64,000 bases of DNA from Escherichia coli (lineage in GTDB: Bacteria; Pseudomonadota; Gammaproteobacteria; Enterobacterales; Enterobacteriaceae): assembly GCF_044324875.1 (NCBI RefSeq), contig NZ_CP172185.1. One strand, 5' to 3'. Positions 44,097-54,373 of this stretch are shown in pieces. The notes beneath the pieces are model-generated. The model did no database searches. It was not told the origin of the DNA and saw only the letters and a list, made by a program, of their open reading frames with translations. The position numbers were made by a program, and so were the translations under genes. The stretch's first letter is position 1. The number at the start of each line of letters is the position of its first letter.

Positions 44097-44677
44097 TAGC
44101 GGATAACCGCTGAAACGATATCGGAGTGCATATCGTCAATTGTGCGGCCGCGACAGGCATGGCCATGGGCGGTAAAGTCCCAGTTGCCGTTATTACGGCG
44201 CAGCGAAGAAATAACGATCCCGGTATGTGAGCCCTGCTCAGTCAGCTTGTAGCGAGCCAGCTCTTTGCCGGTTTGATCGACAACGCGGCAGAACGCGTTT
44301 TCGACGTCATTGAACGACTGACCACGGAAGCTGTTTACCGTAAACGCCAGGTATTCAACGTTTGCAGGCAGTCGGGAGAGGTTGACCTTAATCACTTCAT
44401 CGTCACCGTCACCCTCACCGGTCAGGTTATCGCCACTGTGCACAACAGCGCCGCAGGTGGATTCCAGTTTGCGGAACCAGATGGTGTCAATTGTTTTACC
44501 GGTGCTGTCCATTAATACGCAGCCAGCATCGAGATCGATTGAGTCGTTGCCTCCAAACAATCCTCCAAGAAGACCTTTTTTCTTAACCGGATCCCAACCG
44601 AGACCGAAATGAAGCTGGCTTAATGCAGATGATTCTTTGCTGAGTGATACCGTCTGGTTCTTAACTAATGAAACCAT
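44096..44677 (-). CDS. terZ: tellurium resistance protein TerZ
   Basis: 193 aa TerD-family protein, first gene of the operon, divergent from the biosynthetic module. Confidence 0.85.
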   Translation of the reverse strand: MVSLVKNQTVSLSKESSALSQLHFGLGWDPVKKKGLLGGLFGGNDSIDLDAGCVLMDSTGKTIDTIWFRKLESTCGAVVHSGDNLTGEGDGDDEVIKVNLSRLPANVEYLAFTVNSFRGQSFNDVENAFCRVVDQTGKELARYKLTEQGSHTGIVISSLRRNNGNWDFTAHGHACRGRTIDDMHSDIVSAVIR

Positions 44678-44998
44678 GTTTTATTCCTTAAAATGGTAAT
44701 GACCGAGACAATCAAAGGTATATTTAGTAACTGACGAAGAAAATCATATCATGATGAAGTTCTCTGACAAGGGAAATTTTGGTAGTTTTCTGTAAAAACA
44801 CAAAAATAAATCCTTTTCAGGGTGTTAATTTTCTATTTTTAATTTAAATATCAATATTTTATCACGAATCCAAAAAACACTGGCGCACTCCATAACCACG
44901 GAAGTTATTAATCATATTATGATTGACATGCAGCTTAGACACTCATAGACTCACTTCTCAATCATAAATTTGCATGGCGTTCCGGATAATTAAAAAAA

Positions 44999-46057
44999 AT
45001 GAACAAGAAAATTTGGTTTATGGAAGGTTTATCCTCCCAGCGAGATATTATTCATGGGGTAAAATCATTTGCACAAAAAAATAATTTTGCCATTACCGTT
45101 TTTGCCTCCCACCGTAACGAAAGAAATGAAATCCTTTCCGTTGCCGATTATTCTTTGACTGAACCTGAAGATCCTCAAAAACGTCTTCAGTTTATCCAGG
45201 AAACCATTCAGACCTACGGTATCCACCATATTCATACTGGCCGTAACAGCCAGTGGTTTGAAGAACACCGTTCAGCCATTGAATCGACCGGTGCCACCCT
45301 TACTACCGGTGCAACGGGCGTCGACTGGTTAACTCTGGCTGACGAAAAAGTTACTTTTGCTCAGTTTATGGAGCAAAAGGGTCTCCCGGTCGTACCATCC
45401 TGGCGGGTGAATACGCTGGCAGAATTAAAGACACACCTCGCGGCCCCGCCGTTCACTGACAGCCCGGTATGCGTGAAGCCGGTGACGGGTATCTATGGCA
45501 TGGGATTCTGGCGCTTTGATGACAGTGCTTCGCCTATGGCCGTCTTTAATCATCCCGAACATCGTCTGGTCAGTCCGCAACAGTATATTGCAGCAGCATC
45601 TGCTGCTGAGTCGTTTAAACCCCTTGTTTTGATGCCGTACCTGCCAGGCCCGGAATTTTCCGTCGATATCCTCGCGGATAAGGGCGAAATACTCGCAGCC
45701 GTGGGACGCCGTAAGGAAGGGGCTATCCAGTATCTGGTAAACGAAGGAAGCGCCTGGGAACTGGCGTGTGACTGCGCCCGTGTTATGAAGGCCGACGGGC
45801 TGGTGAATGTTCAGACGCGAAACGATGTGAATGGCAACCCGGTGCTGCTTGAAACCAACATGCGTCCGTCAGGGGGGGTGGGTTATACCCTTCACAGCGG
45901 GGTGAACCTTCCTGGGTTATTTGCTGCCTTTAAGCTCGGTCTGATGTCTGAAGATATGGTACGCCAGAGCGCTAAAAACACCTTTTCTCCGGTTGCGGTG
46001 AGATCCATTACGGATGTAATTGCATACCCGGAATCACTCTCTAACCTTCTGAGTTAA
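44999..46057 (+). CDS. ATP-grasp domain protein of ter-associated biosynthetic module
   Basis: 352 aa; gene order ATP-grasp/PRTase/HAD/StiP/HpcH next to ter genes matches the described ter-linked module; assignment from context and overall architecture, not from motifs I could verify. Confidence 0.6.
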   Translation: MNKKIWFMEGLSSQRDIIHGVKSFAQKNNFAITVFASHRNERNEILSVADYSLTEPEDPQKRLQFIQETIQTYGIHHIHTGRNSQWFEEHRSAIESTGATLTTGATGVDWLTLADEKVTFAQFMEQKGLPVVPSWRVNTLAELKTHLAAPPFTDSPVCVKPVTGIYGMGFWRFDDSASPMAVFNHPEHRLVSPQQYIAAASAAESFKPLVLMPYLPGPEFSVDILADKGEILAAVGRRKEGAIQYLVNEGSAWELACDCARVMKADGLVNVQTRNDVNGNPVLLETNMRPSGGVGYTLHSGVNLPGLFAAFKLGLMSEDMVRQSAKNTFSPVAVRSITDVIAYPESLSNLLS

Positions 46058-46066
46058 GGCGTATTT

Positions 46067-47209
46067 ATGTCTGATATCCTCGAAGATATGATTTATCGCC
46101 GTACCCTCTCATGCGGTACGATTCAGGTAACCCGTGACCAGGGTGAAGTTTCGCTCGATGACCTGTTTGACATCGCTGAAAGACGTAACCCGAAACGCGC
46201 CTTTCTGTTTGTCAGCAAAGTACTCGGCAGGCACATTCCCGTGCCACCCTCAGTCATGCGGCAGGCCTACAGACAGCTTGCCAGCCAGTTCCCCTCGACA
46301 CTGACAGGACCCGTACTGTTTATCGGTATGGCTGAAACCGCCGTTGGGCTTGGGGCCGGTGTATTTGATGAAGTGCGCCACCAGCATCGTGAATCTGTCT
46401 ATCTGACCTCTACCCGTCACCCGGTTGATGGCACGTTGCTTTGCGAGTTCAAGGAAGAACACAGCCACGCCACCGATCATCTGATCTATCTGCCAGATGA
46501 TGAAGAGAAAAGACGTCGTGTTACCAACGCACGAACGCTGGTTTTGATTGATGACGAGGCAACCACCGGTAATACCTTTATTAACCTGCTTTCTGCCCTG
46601 CGTAATACCGGCAAGCTTCAACATATTGAACAGGTTATCGCCGTAACGCTGACCGACTGGAGTGGCAATGCCCTGTCGGAGCGCACCCCCTTGCCAGTCA
46701 CTTCGGTTTCGCTTGTAAGCGGTCAGTGGGGATGGACCCCATTACCTGATGCACATGTCCCGGACATGCCTAAAGTCAACGTAACTTCACGAGGAGAATG
46801 GGACATCCAGGGAAAACAGTCCTGGGGCCGACTGGGGATGCTCGCACCTGCGGCCGATCTCGGCCATGAGGTCTCCGTCCACAAGGGGGAACGTATTCTG
46901 GTTCTCGGGACCGGGGAATTCGTCTGGGAGCCGTTCCTGCTTGCTGAACGGCTCGAAGCTGCCGGAGCACAGGCATTTTATGGATCGACCACCCGCTCCC
47001 CTATCGCCGTTGGTTATGCCATTGAGTCCGCCATTTCCTTTACGGATAACTACGGGCTGGGCATCCCCAATTTTGTCTATAACGTCGCCCACCAGCAGTT
47101 TGACCGCATTCTTGTGTGTACTGAGACACCCGCAGAAAGTATTGACACGCAGCTTCTTAAAGCGCTGGCTGAGGTTGCGCCCGTCGTGGAGATTGTTACC
47201 TATGAATAA
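46067..47209 (+). CDS. phosphoribosyltransferase-domain protein
   Basis: 380 aa; PRPP-binding loop VLIDDEATTGNT. Confidence 0.7.
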   Translation: MSDILEDMIYRRTLSCGTIQVTRDQGEVSLDDLFDIAERRNPKRAFLFVSKVLGRHIPVPPSVMRQAYRQLASQFPSTLTGPVLFIGMAETAVGLGAGVFDEVRHQHRESVYLTSTRHPVDGTLLCEFKEEHSHATDHLIYLPDDEEKRRRVTNARTLVLIDDEATTGNTFINLLSALRNTGKLQHIEQVIAVTLTDWSGNALSERTPLPVTSVSLVSGQWGWTPLPDAHVPDMPKVNVTSRGEWDIQGKQSWGRLGMLAPAADLGHEVSVHKGERILVLGTGEFVWEPFLLAERLEAAGAQAFYGSTTRSPIAVGYAIESAISFTDNYGLGIPNFVYNVAHQQFDRILVCTETPAESIDTQLLKALAEVAPVVEIVTYE

Positions 47210-47975
47210 ACCCGTTGTTCTGAGCGACCTTGACGACACGCTCTTTCAGACCCGTCGTAAAATGGTGGACGAGCTGGCCCTGGAGCCATTCCGTACCGGT
47301 GCCGTTGATCGCACCCTGAATCCACGAAGCTTTATGACGGAAGAACAGTCCATGTTGGTGGACTGGCTCCTGGAGCAGGCTGAACTCATACCCGTTACCG
47401 CACGGGGTACTGAAGAAATCAGCCGCGTACGGATCCCTTTCCACTCCTGGGCAATCACAACGCACGGGGCCGTCATTCTCACGCCTGAAGGCAAACCCGA
47501 CGAGGAGTGGAAGGCCCATATGCTCGGCCAGCTGGCTCCCTACCAGGAAAAGCTGACATCGATGCAGCGTCTGATCACTGAAATGATGGACGCAAAAGGG
47601 CTCAATGCCTGGGCAAGGCTGAACTTCGAATACGGTGAAACGGCGGTTTATATGGTGATGAAACACCGCGACAGCACCCGCCTTGACGAGCTCAATGCCA
47701 TTGCAGATGAGATAGAAACGGTGTTTCCGACCGAGGGCTTCTACATCCACCGCAACAGTAATAACGTGGCCTGGCTTCCCACCCCGGTTGAGAAAGGGCT
47801 GGCAGTCAGCTGGCTGCTTGAAAAACTTCGGGCTGAACGAGGAGTTTTCCCCGTAATTGGTTTGGGCGACAGCCTGAGCGATCATCGTTTTATGAAACTG
47901 TGCAGCTGGTTTGGCATCCCGCGTCAGAGTCAGTTTGCAGATGCCATTTCACAGCGAATTTTTGGAGAAAATTAA
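47202..47975 (+). CDS. HAD-family hydrolase
   Basis: Track ORF 46866..47975; start at ATG 47202 (MNKPVVLSDLDDTLF) gives the HAD motif-I DxDxT at the N-terminus. Confidence 0.75.
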   Translation: MNKPVVLSDLDDTLFQTRRKMVDELALEPFRTGAVDRTLNPRSFMTEEQSMLVDWLLEQAELIPVTARGTEEISRVRIPFHSWAITTHGAVILTPEGKPDEEWKAHMLGQLAPYQEKLTSMQRLITEMMDAKGLNAWARLNFEYGETAVYMVMKHRDSTRLDELNAIADEIETVFPTEGFYIHRNSNNVAWLPTPVEKGLAVSWLLEKLRAERGVFPVIGLGDSLSDHRFMKLCSWFGIPRQSQFADAISQRIFGEN

Positions 47976-47976
47976 A

Positions 47977-49056
47977 ATGCAGCCACATGAAACATTTACC
48001 GGCTCATACCAGCCCGGTGACGTGGAATTTCTGCTAAAGCCGGTTGTCATTGAGATGACGCCGGTTGAGAAAAAAGAAGAACTGATTCAGTCCGGGAAGA
48101 AACATTATTCGGACATGCTCAGCCAGGAGCCAGCGCCTACACAATGGCATCTTGATTTGTTTCACCGGGCGCTGGATCGGGGCGCAGAGAGGCTTGCAAA
48201 AGAAGTCACACAGCTCGCTATTGCTCTGGCCGAACGCTTCGGTGATGAGCCCATTGTACTGGCCAGTCTTGTCAGGGCTGGCGTTCCGCTCGGCGTTATG
48301 CTGCACCAGGCCCTGCGTGACATGGGGAAAACCTCATGGCATTACGGTATCAGCATTATCCGAGATCGTGGAATTGACGGTGCAGCCCTCGACGTCATTG
48401 AAGAGCGCCATGGTACCAGCGGTATTGTCTTTGTTGACGGATGGACAGGTAAAGGCGCAATTACCGGAGAGCTTGTACGCGCACTGAAAGATCGCCCGGG
48501 CTATCCTGAGCAGCCGCGACTGGTTGTCCTGGCCGATCCCTGTGGCTGCTCCTGGCTTGCAGCCAGTGATGATGACTGGCTCATTCCTTTTGGCATCATG
48601 GGTGCGCCGGTATCAGGCCTGATCTCCCGGTCAGTATGGTCCTCTGAAGGATTACATGGGTGCATGGTTTGCGAGCATCTCAGTGAATTCGAATGCAGCC
48701 GGATGCTTGTCGATACCGTCGCCCATTTCCGTAAGAAATTAACCCCGTCATCCCTCGCTACCCTGAGCTGGAATATGGAGTCAGCCCGGGTCTTATGGCA
48801 GACAAGTCGCGACGTTATCGCGTTCCTAGCCGATGAATTTAAAGTGGACAGCGTCAATCGTATTAAACCCGGTATTGCTGAAGCAACCCGGGCTGTATTA
48901 CGTCGGGTACCGGACCATGTATTTGTGCGTTCTATTGACGACCCGGACGTTGCCTTGCTTGTAGGGCTTGCTCGTGAAAAGGGAATAGTTGTTACAGAAA
49001 TGGGGGGAACCCTCGGCCAGTATCGGGCTGTAACCATTATCAAGAAGGTACTCTGA
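47977..49056 (+). CDS. StiP-like cysteine protease family protein
   Basis: Track ORF 47911..49056; ATG at 47977 (MQPHETF); family call from position in the ter module, not from a verified motif. Confidence 0.5.
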   Translation: MQPHETFTGSYQPGDVEFLLKPVVIEMTPVEKKEELIQSGKKHYSDMLSQEPAPTQWHLDLFHRALDRGAERLAKEVTQLAIALAERFGDEPIVLASLVRAGVPLGVMLHQALRDMGKTSWHYGISIIRDRGIDGAALDVIEERHGTSGIVFVDGWTGKGAITGELVRALKDRPGYPEQPRLVVLADPCGCSWLAASDDDWLIPFGIMGAPVSGLISRSVWSSEGLHGCMVCEHLSEFECSRMLVDTVAHFRKKLTPSSLATLSWNMESARVLWQTSRDVIAFLADEFKVDSVNRIKPGIAEATRAVLRRVPDHVFVRSIDDPDVALLVGLAREKGIVVTEMGGTLGQYRAVTIIKKVL

Positions 49057-50012
49057 TGAAAAATCGTCTTTCTCCCTGGAATCTGGGAGCCACGCTATAC
49101 ATGCCTGCAACACGGGAAGATATTGCTGATGCCGTCCTGCACGGGAAAATCCCGGGTTTGCGCTCTCTGGTGATTTGCCTGGAGGATGCTGTCAGTGAAG
49201 CAGACATCCCCGTCGCCCTCAAAAATCTGGAGCACCTGCTGCACGAGCTCAGTAACAGCATGCGTAGCCTGGGTAAAAATGACTGGCCTCTGGTGTTCAT
49301 TCGCCCCCGGCATGCCGAAATGGGCAGATGGTTAAAAGCGCATTATGATCTTTCCGCTGTCGACGGGTTTGTGTTGCCGAAATTTACCCTGAGTTCGTTA
49401 GCTGAATGGTGGGATATCATGGGCGGGACTCACCTGTGCATGATGCCAACGCTGGAAACAGAAGACGTCTTTGACGTGGTTCAGATGCGCGAGCTGGCCA
49501 CCCATCTGGTGGAACATCCCTGCCACGACCGCATTATTGCGCTTCGAATCGGCGGCAACGATCTAATGAACGTTGTGTCGCTTCGCCGTCCCCGCGACCT
49601 GACGCTGTATGACAGCCCGATGGGCTACGTCATCAAAATGCTCGTTTCGGTCTTCGGCCCGCGTGATTTTGCCCTGACCGCGCCCGTATGTGAGCATATT
49701 GACGATCATGCCGTTATGGCCAGAGAGCTGGCTCTTGATATGGCACATGGGCTTGTTGGGAAAACGGCCATTCACCCGGGTCAGATAGAGGTCATTCAAA
49801 ACGCGCTGATGGTCACTCAGGGTGAGCATTCTGACGCTCTGCGGATCCTGAACTCTACCCAGGCCGTGTTTAAGTCTCAGGGAGCGATGTGTGAACCCGC
49901 CACACATCGCCGCTGGGCGGCTGGCATTCTGGACAGAGCTCGTTTTTATGGGTTACAGAACGAGCAAAGCGCTGATGGAATCAGATTACTTACCGTGACC
50001 CAGCATCATTAA
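49056..50012 (+). CDS. HpcH/HpaI aldolase / citrate-lyase beta-like protein
   Basis: 318 aa TIM-barrel-like; start overlaps preceding stop. Confidence 0.6.
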   Translation: MKNRLSPWNLGATLYMPATREDIADAVLHGKIPGLRSLVICLEDAVSEADIPVALKNLEHLLHELSNSMRSLGKNDWPLVFIRPRHAEMGRWLKAHYDLSAVDGFVLPKFTLSSLAEWWDIMGGTHLCMMPTLETEDVFDVVQMRELATHLVEHPCHDRIIALRIGGNDLMNVVSLRRPRDLTLYDSPMGYVIKMLVSVFGPRDFALTAPVCEHIDDHAVMARELALDMAHGLVGKTAIHPGQIEVIQNALMVTQGEHSDALRILNSTQAVFKSQGAMCEPATHRRWAAGILDRARFYGLQNEQSADGIRLLTVTQHH

Positions 50013-50022
50013 GGAAATCATA

Positions 50023-51231
50023 ATGGGGTTCAGGTTCAGAAAGTCGATCAACATTATTCCTGGCGTTCGCCTCAACCTGAGTAACGGTGCACCGAGCCTG
50101 AGTGTCGGGCCGAGAGGTGCTTCCGTTTCTTTTGGAAGCCGGGGGACCTATGCCAATCTGGGCTTGCCCGGTACCGGGCTGAGTTACCGTACCCGGCTTG
50201 ACCGGGCCGCGCGTTCCGGAGGTGGGAACCGGACGGCAACCGACCCGGGGCTCAGACAGGCGCTTGAGCAGGAAGCCGCTGAACTCATGTCAGCGGTGAC
50301 CGCAATCCGTAATATTCACGAGCTCACGCCGGATCCAAAAACAGGCATCAGCTGGGCAGAGCTGGAGGCAGTATACCTGCATAACAGAACGTCGCCTTTT
50401 CAGGTTCCGGCACCGGTACGTCCAGAAAAGCCAGACTACCTTGCATTGCCGGAAAAGCCTGCCGAGAGCGAAGGCATTAGTTTTCTGGGTAAATGGTTTG
50501 AATCGGAATCAGCTAAAGCTGAGCGCCACGCCGAAAATCTTCGCCGGTGGCAGCAGGAGCTGATTGATGTGGAGCGTGAGAATACCCTTCGACAGCACCG
50601 GTACCAGCAACAACGGACGGCCTGGGCCGAACAGTATGCAAACTGGAAGTTTGAAGCTGAAGAACATGAAAAACGGCTCGCCACGGCTCAGGCAGATGCC
50701 CGGCAGCAGTTCCGGACAGACGCCGCGTTTTTCGAATCATACCTGGCGGGTGTGCTGGCAGAAACTGAATGGCCGCGTGAAACGCTTGTTGCATTTGAAG
50801 TAAAGCCGGAGCTATCAGCAGTCCTGCTGGACGTTGATTTAGCTGAGATTGAAGATTTCCCTGATAAGATTTACGGCGTTAATGCCCGGGGCACGGAGCT
50901 GACGGAAAAAGCCATGACGCAAAAAGCCGTACGCGAAAACTATGCCCGCCACGTTCATGGCTGCTTGTTCCGCCTGGTCGGTATCGTTTTACATACGCTA
51001 CCTTTCGACAACGTGATTGTGTCAGGCTTTACGCAACGGGTCAGTAAGCGGACCGGCTATCTGGAGGATGAGTATATCCTGTCCTGCAAATGCACTCGCA
51101 GCCAGATGTCGTCAGTAAATTTTGCAGGCATAGAACACATTGATCCGGTTGAAGCGTTAGGCGATCACCCGGTTATTCGAAAGATGAGCAGTACCTTCAT
51201 TTTTCAGCCTATTGAACCACTAACCCTTTAA
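50023..51231 (+). CDS. DUF4236-like N-terminal domain protein (402 aa)
   Basis: N-terminus MGFRFRKSINIIPGVRLNLSNGAPSLSVGPRG... matches the Gly-rich DUF4236 pattern; central Glu/Arg/Gln-rich probable coiled coil. Confidence 0.5.
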   Translation: MGFRFRKSINIIPGVRLNLSNGAPSLSVGPRGASVSFGSRGTYANLGLPGTGLSYRTRLDRAARSGGGNRTATDPGLRQALEQEAAELMSAVTAIRNIHELTPDPKTGISWAELEAVYLHNRTSPFQVPAPVRPEKPDYLALPEKPAESEGISFLGKWFESESAKAERHAENLRRWQQELIDVERENTLRQHRYQQQRTAWAEQYANWKFEAEEHEKRLATAQADARQQFRTDAAFFESYLAGVLAETEWPRETLVAFEVKPELSAVLLDVDLAEIEDFPDKIYGVNARGTELTEKAMTQKAVRENYARHVHGCLFRLVGIVLHTLPFDNVIVSGFTQRVSKRTGYLEDEYILSCKCTRSQMSSVNFAGIEHIDPVEALGDHPVIRKMSSTFIFQPIEPLTL

Positions 51232-51248: not shown

Positions 51249-51716
51249 ATGCAATTAAATACCAGACAGGCCCGGATTTTTAAGCTTGCCAACTTACTGG
51301 GCACCGGCAAGCCCGTTTCCGCTGCCGACATTATAACCAGTCTGGAATGCTCAGAGCCGACATTAACCCGGGCCCTCAAAGAGCTACGCGAGTCATATTC
51401 TGCGGAGATCAAATACAGCAAGGCAGGTCATTCCTACCATCTCGTTAATCCGGGCCAGCTGGATAAAAAGACCCTTCGCCGGATGAATGAAGCGCTCGCA
51501 CAGAATGCTGAACTGAAAACCGGTGAGTCCACAGGGAAGGTCGTACTCGATAAGGATAAAAAAACAGCCGTGTCATTATCGCTACGCATGCGGATTTTAA
51601 GAAAAATTGACCGTCTGGCTGCGCTGAGTGGCTCGACCCGAAGTGAAGCGGTAGAGAAGCTGGCTCTGCACTCCGTTGATGAACTGATAAAAGAATACAG
51701 CGCTAAAAAGTCCTGA
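51249..51716 (+). CDS. terW: TerW-like DNA-binding regulator
   Basis: 155 aa, size and position as for TerW of ter islands; N-terminal helix-turn-helix-like segment. Confidence 0.65.
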   Translation: MQLNTRQARIFKLANLLGTGKPVSAADIITSLECSEPTLTRALKELRESYSAEIKYSKAGHSYHLVNPGQLDKKTLRRMNEALAQNAELKTGESTGKVVLDKDKKTAVSLSLRMRILRKIDRLAALSGSTRSEAVEKLALHSVDELIKEYSAKKS

Positions 51717-51730
51717 CGCTAAATCTCAGA

Positions 51731-51753
51731 CCGGGGTGAAAACCCCGGTTTTG
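51731..51753 (+). terminator. rho-independent terminator after terW
   Basis: CCGGGGT-GAAAA-CCCCGG followed by TTTTGT, 15 nt after the terW stop. Confidence 0.55.
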
Positions 51754-51981: not shown

Positions 51982-52659
51982 ATGTCCATCATTTTTAATG
52001 GACATTATCGTATGAAACACCGGACCTGGATCACTGAAGCTTTACGTCTTCACTTTGAAGAACATTTACCCCGGGTTGTGGCCGGGCGTCGCCTGGGTGT
52101 ACCAAAATCAACAGTTTGTAGTATGTTCGTGCGCTTTCGGAGAGCTGGCCTTTCGTGGCCTTTGCCCGCAGGCATGTCGGAGCAGGAACTTGATGCCTGC
52201 CTTTACGGACAATTTTCCACGGTACCAGTCGTACGTCCTGAAAGCACCGTTATATCCGAAGCCCCCGTGGTAAAAAAACGTCCCCGGCGGCCCAACTTCC
52301 CTTATGAGTTTAAAATCGCCTTAGTGGAGCAGTCACTGCAGCCCGGAGCCTGTGTGGCGCAGATCGCCCGGGAAAACGGAATCAACGATAACCTGCTCTT
52401 CAACTGGCGCCATCAATACCGGAAAGGTGGCCTGCTGCCTTCCGGAAAAAATATGCCGGCACTGCTTCCCGTGACGTTAACGCCGGAGCCGGATAATAAA
52501 ATCCCGGCCCCCGCACAGGAACCAGAGCAGATAAATACACCGTCCGACAGTCTGTGTTGTGAGCTGGTTCTGCCGGCCGGAACTCTCAGGCTTAAAGGTA
52601 AACTGACGCCGGCGTTATTACAGACACTTATCCGCGAAATAAAAGGGAGCAGCCACTGA
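51982..52659 (+). CDS. tnpA: IS66-family Orf1 (TnpA)
   Basis: 225 aa; C-terminal half aligns with TnpA of the other IS66 copy. Confidence 0.75.
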   Translation: MSIIFNGHYRMKHRTWITEALRLHFEEHLPRVVAGRRLGVPKSTVCSMFVRFRRAGLSWPLPAGMSEQELDACLYGQFSTVPVVRPESTVISEAPVVKKRPRRPNFPYEFKIALVEQSLQPGACVAQIARENGINDNLLFNWRHQYRKGGLLPSGKNMPALLPVTLTPEPDNKIPAPAQEPEQINTPSDSLCCELVLPAGTLRLKGKLTPALLQTLIREIKGSSH

Positions 52660-53006
52660 TGATATCTCTCCCTGCAGGTTCGCGTATCTGGCTGGTTGCA
52701 GGTATCACCGATATGCGAAATGGCTTTAACGGCCTGGCATCAAAAGTTCAGAACGTCCTGAAGGATGACCCGTTCTCCGGACACCTGTTCATCTTCCGCG
52801 GACGCCGGGGTGACCAGATAAAAGTGTTGTGGGCTGACAGTGACGGACTGTGCCTCTTCACCAAACGCCTGGAGCGGGGCCGCTTCGTCTGGCCAGTCAC
52901 CCGTGACGGCAAGGTGCACCTTACTCCGGCTCAGTTATCCATGCTTCTTGAAGGTATCAACTGGAAGCACCCGAAACGAACGGAACGCGCTGGAATCCGC
53001 ATATAA
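52659..53006 (+). CDS. tnpB: IS66-family Orf2 (TnpB)
   Basis: 115 aa, MISLPAGSRIWLVAGITDMRNGFNGLA..., near-identical to 9838..10185. Confidence 0.85.
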   Translation: MISLPAGSRIWLVAGITDMRNGFNGLASKVQNVLKDDPFSGHLFIFRGRRGDQIKVLWADSDGLCLFTKRLERGRFVWPVTRDGKVHLTPAQLSMLLEGINWKHPKRTERAGIRI

Positions 53007-53601
53007 CCCGTTGTAAAGTGAGGATATGGACACCTCACTTGCTCATGAGAACGCCCGCCTGCGGGCACTGTTGCAGACGCAACAGGACACCATCCGCCAG
53101 ATGGCTGAATACAACCGCCTGCTCTCACAGCGGGTGGCGGCTTATGCTTCCGAAATCAACCGGCTGAAGGCGCTGGTTGCGAAACTGCAACGTATGCAGT
53201 TCGGTAAAAGCTCAGAAAAACTTCGTGCAAAAACCGAACGGCAGATACAGGAAGCACAGGAGCGAATCAGCGCACTTCAGGAAGAAATGGCGGAAACGCT
53301 GGGTGAGCAATATGACCCGGTACTGCCATCCGCCCTGCGCCAGTCTTCAGCCCGTAAACCGTTACCGGCCTCACTTCCCCGTGAAACCCGGGTTATCCGG
53401 CCGGAAGAGGAATGCTGTCCTGCCTGTGGTGGTGAACTCAGTTCTCTGGGATGTGATGTGTCAGAGCAACTGGAGCTTATCAGCAGCGCCTTTAAGGTTA
53501 TCTGCGTATTCCGCTCTATTCGATCACGGATTGGCATCGAAGTCCGATCAGCGATTCGCATCCATTCGATCAACCGGGAACTTAACTTTTTCTACCGCTT
53601 T

Positions 53602-54357
53602 TTAACGCGTTTTTTCGCTGCTTTCCACTACCGGGGGATTTTTCCTCAGTGACTCTCCCTGAAGGACCACTCGGTGTGAGTTATGTACCAGTCTGTCCAG
53701 GATGGCATCTGCTGTTGTTGGGTTCTCCATCAGACCATGCCATTTATCTACCGGGAACTGGCTTACCACTATCGTGCTGCTTTGTCCGTAACGATCCTCT
53801 ATGAGCTCCAGAAGGTCATTACACTGGGCGTTACTTAACTGTTCCAGCCCCAGATCGTCCAGGATTAGAACCTGTATTTTTTGCAACTGTTTCAGATATT
53901 TCAGCCAGCTGCCATCAACACGTCCCTGAGCCAGTTGTTCCAGTAATCGCCCGGTTCTACAGTACCGGACGCTGTGTTTCTGTCGACATGCCTGTTCGCC
54001 CAGCGCATTGGCTATCCAGCTCTTGCCACATCCTGTCGGACCGGTTATCAGCAGGTTTTTCCTGTGGGTTATGTAGTGGCCGTTCAGCAGTTCTCTCATC
54101 TGTTCAGCCCGCAGACCTCTTGAGGCCGGATAGCGCAGCCCTTCCGGTGTTGCCTGGTATTTCAGGCCGGCATTTTTTCTCAACCGTGCCACACGGCTGT
54201 TTTCCCTGCTCAGAAGCTCGTCATCAACCAGCAGCGTCAGCCTTTCCTCGAACGACAGTTCGTCGTAGGTCTGAGGCGTTTCCCGCTGCCGTATCAGGCT
54301 CCCGGCCATCGCCGGGAGTTTCAGTTGGGTCAGTTTGTTTAACAGGTTATCACTCAT
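53602..54357 (-). CDS. istB: IS21-family IstB
   Basis: Identical to 3714..4469. Confidence 0.9.
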   Translation of the reverse strand: MSDNLLNKLTQLKLPAMAGSLIRQRETPQTYDELSFEERLTLLVDDELLSRENSRVARLRKNAGLKYQATPEGLRYPASRGLRAEQMRELLNGHYITHRKNLLITGPTGCGKSWIANALGEQACRQKHSVRYCRTGRLLEQLAQGRVDGSWLKYLKQLQKIQVLILDDLGLEQLSNAQCNDLLELIEDRYGQSSTIVVSQFPVDKWHGLMENPTTADAILDRLVHNSHRVVLQGESLRKNPPVVESSEKTR

Positions 54358-54373
54358 ACTGTTGTTCCTTCTG

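Follow-up and report, generated by a model that had tools for sequence, protein, structure and literature searches.

The stretch of Escherichia coli DNA analyzed here (64,000 nucleotides of contig NZ_CP172185.1, assembly GCF_044324875.1; hereafter the window) carries a tellurite resistance (ter) island, in which terZABCDE are found on the minus strand and, beyond a divergent intergenic region, seven closely spaced genes on the plus strand. The first five of the latter encode the biosynthetic enzymes of the system and the seventh is terW, while the sixth (50023-51231, plus strand) encodes a 402-aa DUF4236 protein, for which we use the shorthand X. An open reading frame (ORF) with an ATG start at this place, situated between an HpcH-like gene and terW, had been pointed out in a preliminary description of the sequence, and both the frame and its location were found to be correct, with a C-C_Bond_Lyase gene (PF15617) and terW as the flanks. 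As argued below, X may be an accessory, non-biosynthetic cytoplasmic partner of TerD-domain proteins, with a C-terminal domain that would bind a ligand or metal, and we put the probability of this reading at roughly 0.45. The strongest functional clue is the repeated, independent coupling of X to TerD-family proteins.

The spacing, 10 nt before X and 17 nt behind it, makes it probable that X is transcribed together with terW and the five biosynthetic genes. A putative Shine-Dalgarno sequence, AAGGAA, shares bases with the TAA stop codon of the upstream lyase gene. Purifying selection was evident from a comparison between the window allele and the O157 Xuzhou21 allele (omega = 0.24); this within-E. 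coli comparison replaced dN/dS against other genera, where synonymous sites were saturated. Between genera, the dN of X was similar to that of the neighbor genes. Together with the full-length homologs of down to ~30% identity that occur in many phyla, the selection identifies X as a real ORF and not a chance frame. The gene is already present in public annotation, where RefSeq labels it "DUF4236 domain-containing protein" in 956 of the 5426 complete genomes of E. coli and on 1255 plasmids in PLSDB, most of them conjugative and from Escherichia, Salmonella, Enterobacter and Klebsiella, and the ter island itself is a well-known system. In E. coli, X and the biosynthetic genes co-occur one to one (956 vs 955 genomes). 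In our literature searches, neither the function of DUF4236 nor that of X was found to be the subject of any paper.

An AlphaFold2 model of full-length X, for which an alignment (A1) of 42 full-length homologs down to ~34% identity served as input, had a mean predicted local distance difference test score (pLDDT) of 87.8 and was made up of four parts. The first of these, residues 3-56, matched the whole of Pfam PF14020 (DUF4236; profile positions 1-55 of 55), scoring 77.4 bits where the gathering cut-off is 27 (E=1.2e-21), and was modelled as six short strands (residues 8-58, pLDDT ~80). Residues 1-60 contain 10 Gly, 8 Lys/Arg and a single Asp/Glu, for a net charge of about +7, bearing out the Gly-rich DUF4236-type N-terminus that had been noted earlier. 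The domain begins at residue 3 not only in X but also in the family proteins P0240 and P0254, and a G[FL]RF-like motif was found at the start of 197 out of 226 relatives having a long N-terminal region. It is followed by a middle region (residues 75-161), conserved in A1, with predicted helices at 75-96 and 111-123, a Pro-rich stretch modelled with high pLDDT, an IHxxTPxP motif and the invariant residues P103, P131 and P134. The third part is a single long polar helix of 69 residues (162-230), with an invariant W208; Lys, Arg, Asp and Glu make up 36% of residues 161-235. Where the preliminary description had expected a long, charged and probable coiled coil, the charged helix was recovered, but the coiled coil did not gain significant support in a simple shuffle test: the a/d heptad occupancy was 0.35 against a shuffle mean of 0.30 (p ~0.2), and with Ala counted the values were 0.60 and 0.48 (p 0.04). 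No transmembrane segment was predicted in X, the highest 19-residue Kyte-Doolittle mean being 1.54, inside a helix of the folded domain, and the polar N-terminus (MGFRFRKS) did not qualify as a signal peptide. An internal amphipathic membrane-targeting helix was considered, with a consensus (G-F-F-x-K-L-F) that we take to be reminiscent of the MinD tail. The hydrophobic moment was just 0.35-0.54, only 111 out of 260 proteins had the motif in its strict form, and the helix was retained as no more than a weak lead. X is a real, conserved, cytoplasmic three-part protein.

The C-terminal part of X is not a coil, since the last 170 residues are predicted with confidence to be an alpha/beta domain. 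When modelled separately from a domain-only alignment (A2; 57 sequences, pairwise identity <=62%), it reached a pLDDT of 96.7 and a predicted template modelling score of 0.89. Six residues, W250, D272, E275, Y307, H312 and Q338, are invariant in A2, and another thirteen (P251, E253, T254, D270, E277, R304, S334, R339, G345, Y351, S354, R359 and R386) are conserved in >=90% of the sequences. The motifs of the domain are WPRET, DVDLPEIED, YAxHVHG and SG(F/Y)(S/T)QR. Within the second and most conserved of these, the window allele and the common E. coli allele P0001 have Ala at residue 274 (50842-50844), a position occupied by Pro in >90% of the family (DLAEIED vs DLPEIED).

The domain was without a counterpart in the collections searched. 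Residues 74-402 gave no Pfam match at E<=10, which leaves DUF4236 as the sole Pfam domain of X; the A2 profile matched no PDB sequence, and the full-length A1 profile only retrieved compositional matches of the long helix (best E 0.068). NCBIfam held no match for X, PADLOC-DB v2 none for X or for the X-TerD fusion described below, and Foldseek found nothing in the PDB at E<=0.001 for the C-terminal domain. No enzyme was present among the significant fold or sequence matches. The Pfam searches also gave no recognizable DNA-binding domain, no TerD domain (PF02342) in the window protein, and no match to the models that define the Ter biosynthetic module (ATPgrasp_Ter, PRTase_2/TRSP, HAD, StiP/PELOTA_1 and C-C_Bond_Lyase). 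The earlier statement that X has no obvious enzymatic motif therefore stands as far as known families in Pfam, NCBIfam, PADLOC and PDB sequences are concerned, but in view of the invariant polar residues it should be read as the lack of a known motif. Readings of DVDLPEIED as part of a PD-(D/E)xK nuclease or a Pol-beta-type nucleotidyltransferase were rejected, as the predicted strand order did not fit, GS and (D/E)xK motifs were missing and there was no support from the fold. As modelled, the C-terminal domain is new and confidently folded, with an invariant polar constellation. A putative pocket for a small ligand or a divalent metal is suggested by the Asp, Glu, His, Gln, Arg and Tyr residues that do not vary.

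Residues 74-402 were searched, without filters, against 1.84 billion representative proteins. At E<=0.001 there were 956 clusters, 136 of which also passed E<=1e-30, and the proteins were nearly all of ~400-460 aa with the domain at the C-terminus. This architecture, found in e.g. Proteobacteria, Chloroflexi, Synergistota and Deinococcota, is old and widespread. A scan in which each GTDB species was represented by a single genome provided 80 loci, which were searched with the twelve Ter proteins of the window. An identical lyase-X-terW slot was found in eight of them, all Gammaproteobacteria, as well as in a separately retrieved Serratia locus; the fixed order occurs in Escherichia, Buttiauxella, Klebsiella, Rahnella, Serratia, Shewanella, Marinomonas, Rheinheimera and an Aeromonadaceae genome. 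Other arrangements were also linked to Ter proteins. X follows TerZ-TerA in Endozoicomonas, at the end of a ter cluster with another gene order, and a possibly truncated copy abuts TerB/TerC in Extensimonas. In Psychromonas, X lies between TerD genes (one of them a fragment) and a TerA-like gene, and the biosynthetic genes are absent. Lastly, DUF4236, the C-terminal domain and TerD (TerD E=4.5e-35) are naturally fused in a single protein, P0254, found on 13 contigs. In a neighbor-joining tree of the domain, the ter-operon clade and Psychromonas were monophyletic, while Endozoicomonas, Extensimonas and the fusion were each placed elsewhere, from which it follows that X became linked to Ter proteins on four occasions or more, most specifically to those with a TerD domain. 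The fusion, and the adjacency to TerD-family genes in independent loci, make plausible the earlier suggestion that X is a structural or regulatory partner of the module.

X has also been lost from ter loci that are otherwise alike. A description of Pectobacterium mentions an operon of five uncharacterized genes adjoining terW (PMC7843439), after which further loci were retrieved by means of TerW homologs. In a Pectobacterium genome and a Yersinia-type genome, terZABCDE, the five enzyme genes and terW were found in the same order but X was absent. The 320-bp gap in the Yersinia-type locus (L094, 9822-9980) still contains a decayed remnant of the 3' part of X (33% identity over 88 aa, including ...VIRKMS..FIF..IE...), which indicates that X was lost by deletion there; no remnant was found in the Pectobacterium gap (L093, 9657-10000). 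According to the preliminary description, a role in the module would be contradicted if the gene were missing, without consequence, from otherwise identical ter islands. The absence itself was thus observed, and terZ-F alone are reported to give tellurite resistance in E. coli K-12 (PMC8115787). Strict co-inheritance with the pathway genes fails in both directions, i.e. enzymes without X in Pectobacterium and the Yersinia-type genome, and X without enzymes in Psychromonas. X is an optional add-on, not a core part of the ter system, and neither the biosynthetic enzymes nor tellurite resistance is obligatorily tied to it.

The reading that we favor, with a mechanism that we infer, is that X acts alongside TerD proteins and belongs neither to the core Ter components nor to the enzymes of the pathway for the nucleoside-like metabolite. 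It would combine a basic, Gly-rich and obligately N-terminal DUF4236 beta-module, a helical and Pro-rich stalk, and a compact acidic alpha/beta domain, all as predicted. The C-terminal domain may sense or bind a ligand or metal, and would be coupled to TerD-type Ca2+-binding domains either in cis, as in P0254, or in trans, as in the ter loci. The DUF4236 module, common to many phage and bacterial proteins with unrelated C-termini, could address X to a common cellular site. In this manner X might modulate the stress or phage-conflict response of Ter rather than being needed for tellurite resistance.

Several points weigh against this reading. Approximately 70 of the 80 sampled species carry the family without any ter gene within 10 kb; X is therefore not a dedicated ter component, and the invariant pocket cannot be there solely for Ter. 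The number of invariant polar residues would equally fit a catalytic site, the targeting role of DUF4236 is a guess from the behavior of the domain with its partners, and terW has its own regulation in Pectobacterium (PMC7843439). It is conceivable, if rather doubtful, that the last 170 residues are an undescribed ligand- or metal-sensing (or catalytic) domain which, together with DUF4236, makes up a widespread stand-alone stress or phage-conflict protein, with TerD as a recurrent signalling partner. On that view, X would be the first output or adaptor to be identified for TerD proteins.

The contexts outside ter loci were highly diverse. All-against-all clustering of flanking ORFs gave no dominant non-ter neighbor, none being present in more than 6 of the ~80 loci, and most family members were isolated genes in variable regions. 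A targeted search of 94 loci with X found an SNase gene in 8, two of which are copies of one place, and His-Xaa-Ser (Hxs) radical-SAM systems in 4. The loci with either neighbor were L006, L061, L096, L097, L030, L039, L048 and the P0118 contig, with SNase genes next to or near X at 6 places; the SNase gene directly adjoins X in L006, L030, L039 and L097, and an integrase lies beside X in L096 and L097. Other recurrent neighbors were integrases, GmrSD and ArdA. Some of the SNase neighbors also carry an Excalibur domain; dependence on Ca2+ or binding of it is common to SNase, Excalibur and TerD. In a tight block of four genes (L007, 3298-13009), the TerD fusion comes last, following a type III Res-like helicase, a ThsB-like/PDC-S66 TIR protein and a type III Mod methylase (E=0), with an RmrA-like helix-turn-helix (HTH)-M78 regulator adjoining the block, which could be a defence island using TerD outside any ter locus. 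The family was furthermore present on 17 IMG/VR contigs, with one copy beside an S24 repressor and an antirepressor. On five prophage contigs (L108-L112) the C-terminal domain is joined to another, non-DUF4236 N-terminus, and in L108 and L110 its gene has the tape-measure gene on one side and Fic/DOC or ORF6N on the other. The same spot, just upstream of the tape-measure gene, is in Clostridium phage phiCD38-2 (L091) occupied by gp15, a DUF4236-only protein. These positions are typical of accessory cargo genes in mobile elements, and they fit the phage-inhibition and colicin phenotypes reported for ter loci (PMC8115787) as well as the concept that Ter acts in conflict and stress (PMC7824862).

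All of this, including the restriction-modification and TIR surroundings of the fusion and the loss of X from some ter loci, would also be in keeping with X being autonomous mobile-element cargo, with a stress, defence, superinfection-exclusion or anti-defence function, that hitch-hikes in the ter island without any mechanistic tie to Ter. That explanation nevertheless seems unlikely, although it survives better than the two that follow. The syntenic slot is stable from Enterobacterales to Shewanella and Marinomonas, the gene and the operon co-occur one to one in E. coli, and X has become physically fused to TerD; moreover, at least four independent Ter associations are far above what random cargo would give (by rough estimate, not computed), and no PADLOC model was matched.

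The position of X directly after five enzyme genes, on the same strand and after only 10 nt, raises the further alternative of a sixth ter biosynthetic enzyme, its C-terminal domain being a hydrolase or transferase with a new fold and the predicted nucleoside-like metabolite as substrate. An active site could be accommodated by the invariant D272, E275, H312, Q338 and Y307, and by the near-invariant D270, E277, R339, Y351 and R386. Even so we regard it as improbable, since the five enzymes persist without X in Pectobacterium and the Yersinia-type locus, X accompanies TerD proteins without the enzymes in Psychromonas, neither enzymes nor TerD proteins are found with X in ~70 loci, and no enzyme was matched significantly; the dispensability of X in itself argues against a pathway enzyme. 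More improbable still is a TerW co-regulator, i.e. a sensor or anti-repressor tuning the binding of TerW at the ter intergenic region, for although X immediately precedes terW throughout the ter-operon clade (17 nt in the window) and TerW is reported to regulate the divergent ter operons (PMC7843439), TerW is intact where X has been lost, the Psychromonas and Endozoicomonas loci and the neighborhood of the fusion, where X is paired with TerD, yielded no TerW homolog, and X has no recognizable DNA-binding domain.

The ter locus around X in the window is set out in Table 1, with the products of terZ-terE, i.e. TerD-family and membrane components, as the proposed partners of X. The Ter system is thought to comprise a signal-producing pathway, ligand-binding TerB and TerD, the membrane protein TerC and sub-membrane scaffolds, according to PMC7824862, which summarizes Anantharaman 2012. 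TerW is given as the regulator of the ter operons in PMC7843439, citing Valkovicova 2011, and TerW and PhoP sites are reported at the equivalent intergenic place in Pectobacterium (PMC7843439). The hairpin directly after terW is likely to be the end of the transcription unit.

The terF gene (TerD-N + vWA) is interrupted by an insertion sequence (IS) of the IS3 family; in strain TUM9803, where the ter region is otherwise identical, the vWA gene is intact and encodes 413 aa. Directly downstream of terW is an IS66-family element whose tnpC is in two pieces with IS21-like istB/istA inside, while the same IS66-family and IS21-like elements have a non-nested arrangement in TUM9803. Beyond these lies a 1291-aa ORF, the TUM9803 equivalent of which is an S6-family (SPATE-type) autotransporter peptidase in RefSeq, and which suggests that the ter island is located in a pathogenicity-island-like region.

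Table 1. Features of X and of the surrounding ter locus, in window coordinates.
Feature	Position	Strand	Basis or remark
1291-aa ORF past the IS elements	57745-61620	-	S6-family (SPATE-type) equivalent in TUM9803
IS66-family element	51982-57242		directly downstream of terW
IS66 tnpA	51982-52659		
IS66 tnpB	52659-53006		
IS66 tnpC, two pieces	53026-53652 and 56106-57242		
IS21-like istB/istA	53602-56020	-	inside tnpC
Terminator-like hairpin	51728-51751	+	10 pairs, 6 G-C; consensus scan
terW, winged-HTH regulator	51249-51716	+	starts 17 nt past the X stop codon
Gene X	50023..51231	+	ATG-start ORF, 402 aa; 6th of 7 closely spaced genes
C-terminal alpha/beta domain (residues 232-402)	50716..51228	+	conserved; not in Pfam
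Single long polar helix (residues 162-230)	50506..50712	+	AlphaFold2; invariant W208
Helical and Pro-rich middle region (residues 75-161)	50245..50505	+	alignment A1; AlphaFold2
DUF4236 module (residues 3-56)	50029..50190	+	Gly-rich, basic; Pfam PF14020
Shine-Dalgarno-like AAGGAA (putative)	50011..50016	+	6 nt before the X ATG; read from the sequence
C-C_Bond_Lyase, HpcH-like	49056-50012	+	PF15617, E=7e-114; RefSeq annotation of L090
StiP+PELOTA_1	47977-49056	+	Pfam; RefSeq annotation of identical locus L090
HAD-like hydrolase	47202-47975	+	Pfam; RefSeq annotation of identical locus L090
PRTase_2+TRSP	46067-47209	+	Pfam; RefSeq annotation of identical locus L090
ATP-grasp (PF15632)	44999-46057	+	Pfam; RefSeq annotation of identical locus L090
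terZ-ATP-grasp divergent intergenic region, 320 bp	44678..44998		promoter-like sites on both strands; consensus matches only
terZ-terE block	40127..44677	-	proposed partners of X
terZ	44096-44677	-	Pfam TerD matches in block; RefSeq annotation of L090
terA	42939-44096	-	RefSeq annotation of L090
terB	42461-42916	-	RefSeq annotation of L090
terC	41398-42438	-	RefSeq annotation of L090
terD	40771-41349	-	RefSeq annotation of L090
terE	40127-40702	-	RefSeq annotation of L090
terF region with IS3-family element	37144-39698		
TerF, N-terminal part	39309-39698	-	
IS3 orfB	38379-39269	+	
IS3 orfA	38056-38382	+	
TerF, C-terminal part	37144-37716	-	

The ter locus is common on plasmids and islands of pathogenic E. 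coli, Klebsiella, Salmonella and Enterobacter, and has been linked to infection and gut fitness (PMC8115787). Three results narrow down the role of X, namely that it is optional, that it falls outside the enzyme set and that it is repeatedly coupled to TerD domains, and the fusion protein, the residues D272, E275 and H312, and the natural loss variants provide handles on what TerD signals to. What is added here to the existing annotation is the domain anatomy, the TerD fusion with the linkages to Ter that arose independently, and the loss variants. This is an incremental gain, which does not overturn current views of the Ter system.

The resemblances of X to known proteins are all partial. Its C-terminal domain shares a common architecture with two structural groups, which the fold-match scores do not extend to family membership. 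The first is the CamS or "sex pheromone precursor" lipoprotein domain (PDB 3ib5), with 9% identity and ~60% of the domain aligned; CamS is an extracellular Firmicutes lipoprotein, and the fold score lies below the level of homology. The second consists of the metal-binding C-terminal domains of CDF transporters (MamM, MamB, CzrB, CzcD and ZnT), with which only the core is common (identity 5-14%), whereas X has additional strands and helices and no transporter. Other DUF4236 proteins, such as gp15 of phiCD38-2, have the same 55-residue Gly-rich basic N-terminal module, always starting at residue 1-3. The phage proteins resemble X in the N-terminus only, or over its first ~110 residues at most, being devoid of the long helix and the C-terminal domain. 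In its relation to the Ter system, X is most comparable to the TerF/TerY vWA proteins, which are proposed sub-membrane scaffolds. Both are non-enzymatic-looking, encoded in ter loci, fused or adjacent to TerD and optional across lineages, but X has no vWA domain and no sequence or fold relation to TerF/TerY, and most of its relatives, unlike these, are found outside ter loci. X is thus an undescribed member of the optional Ter-associated proteins, and not a new kind of system.

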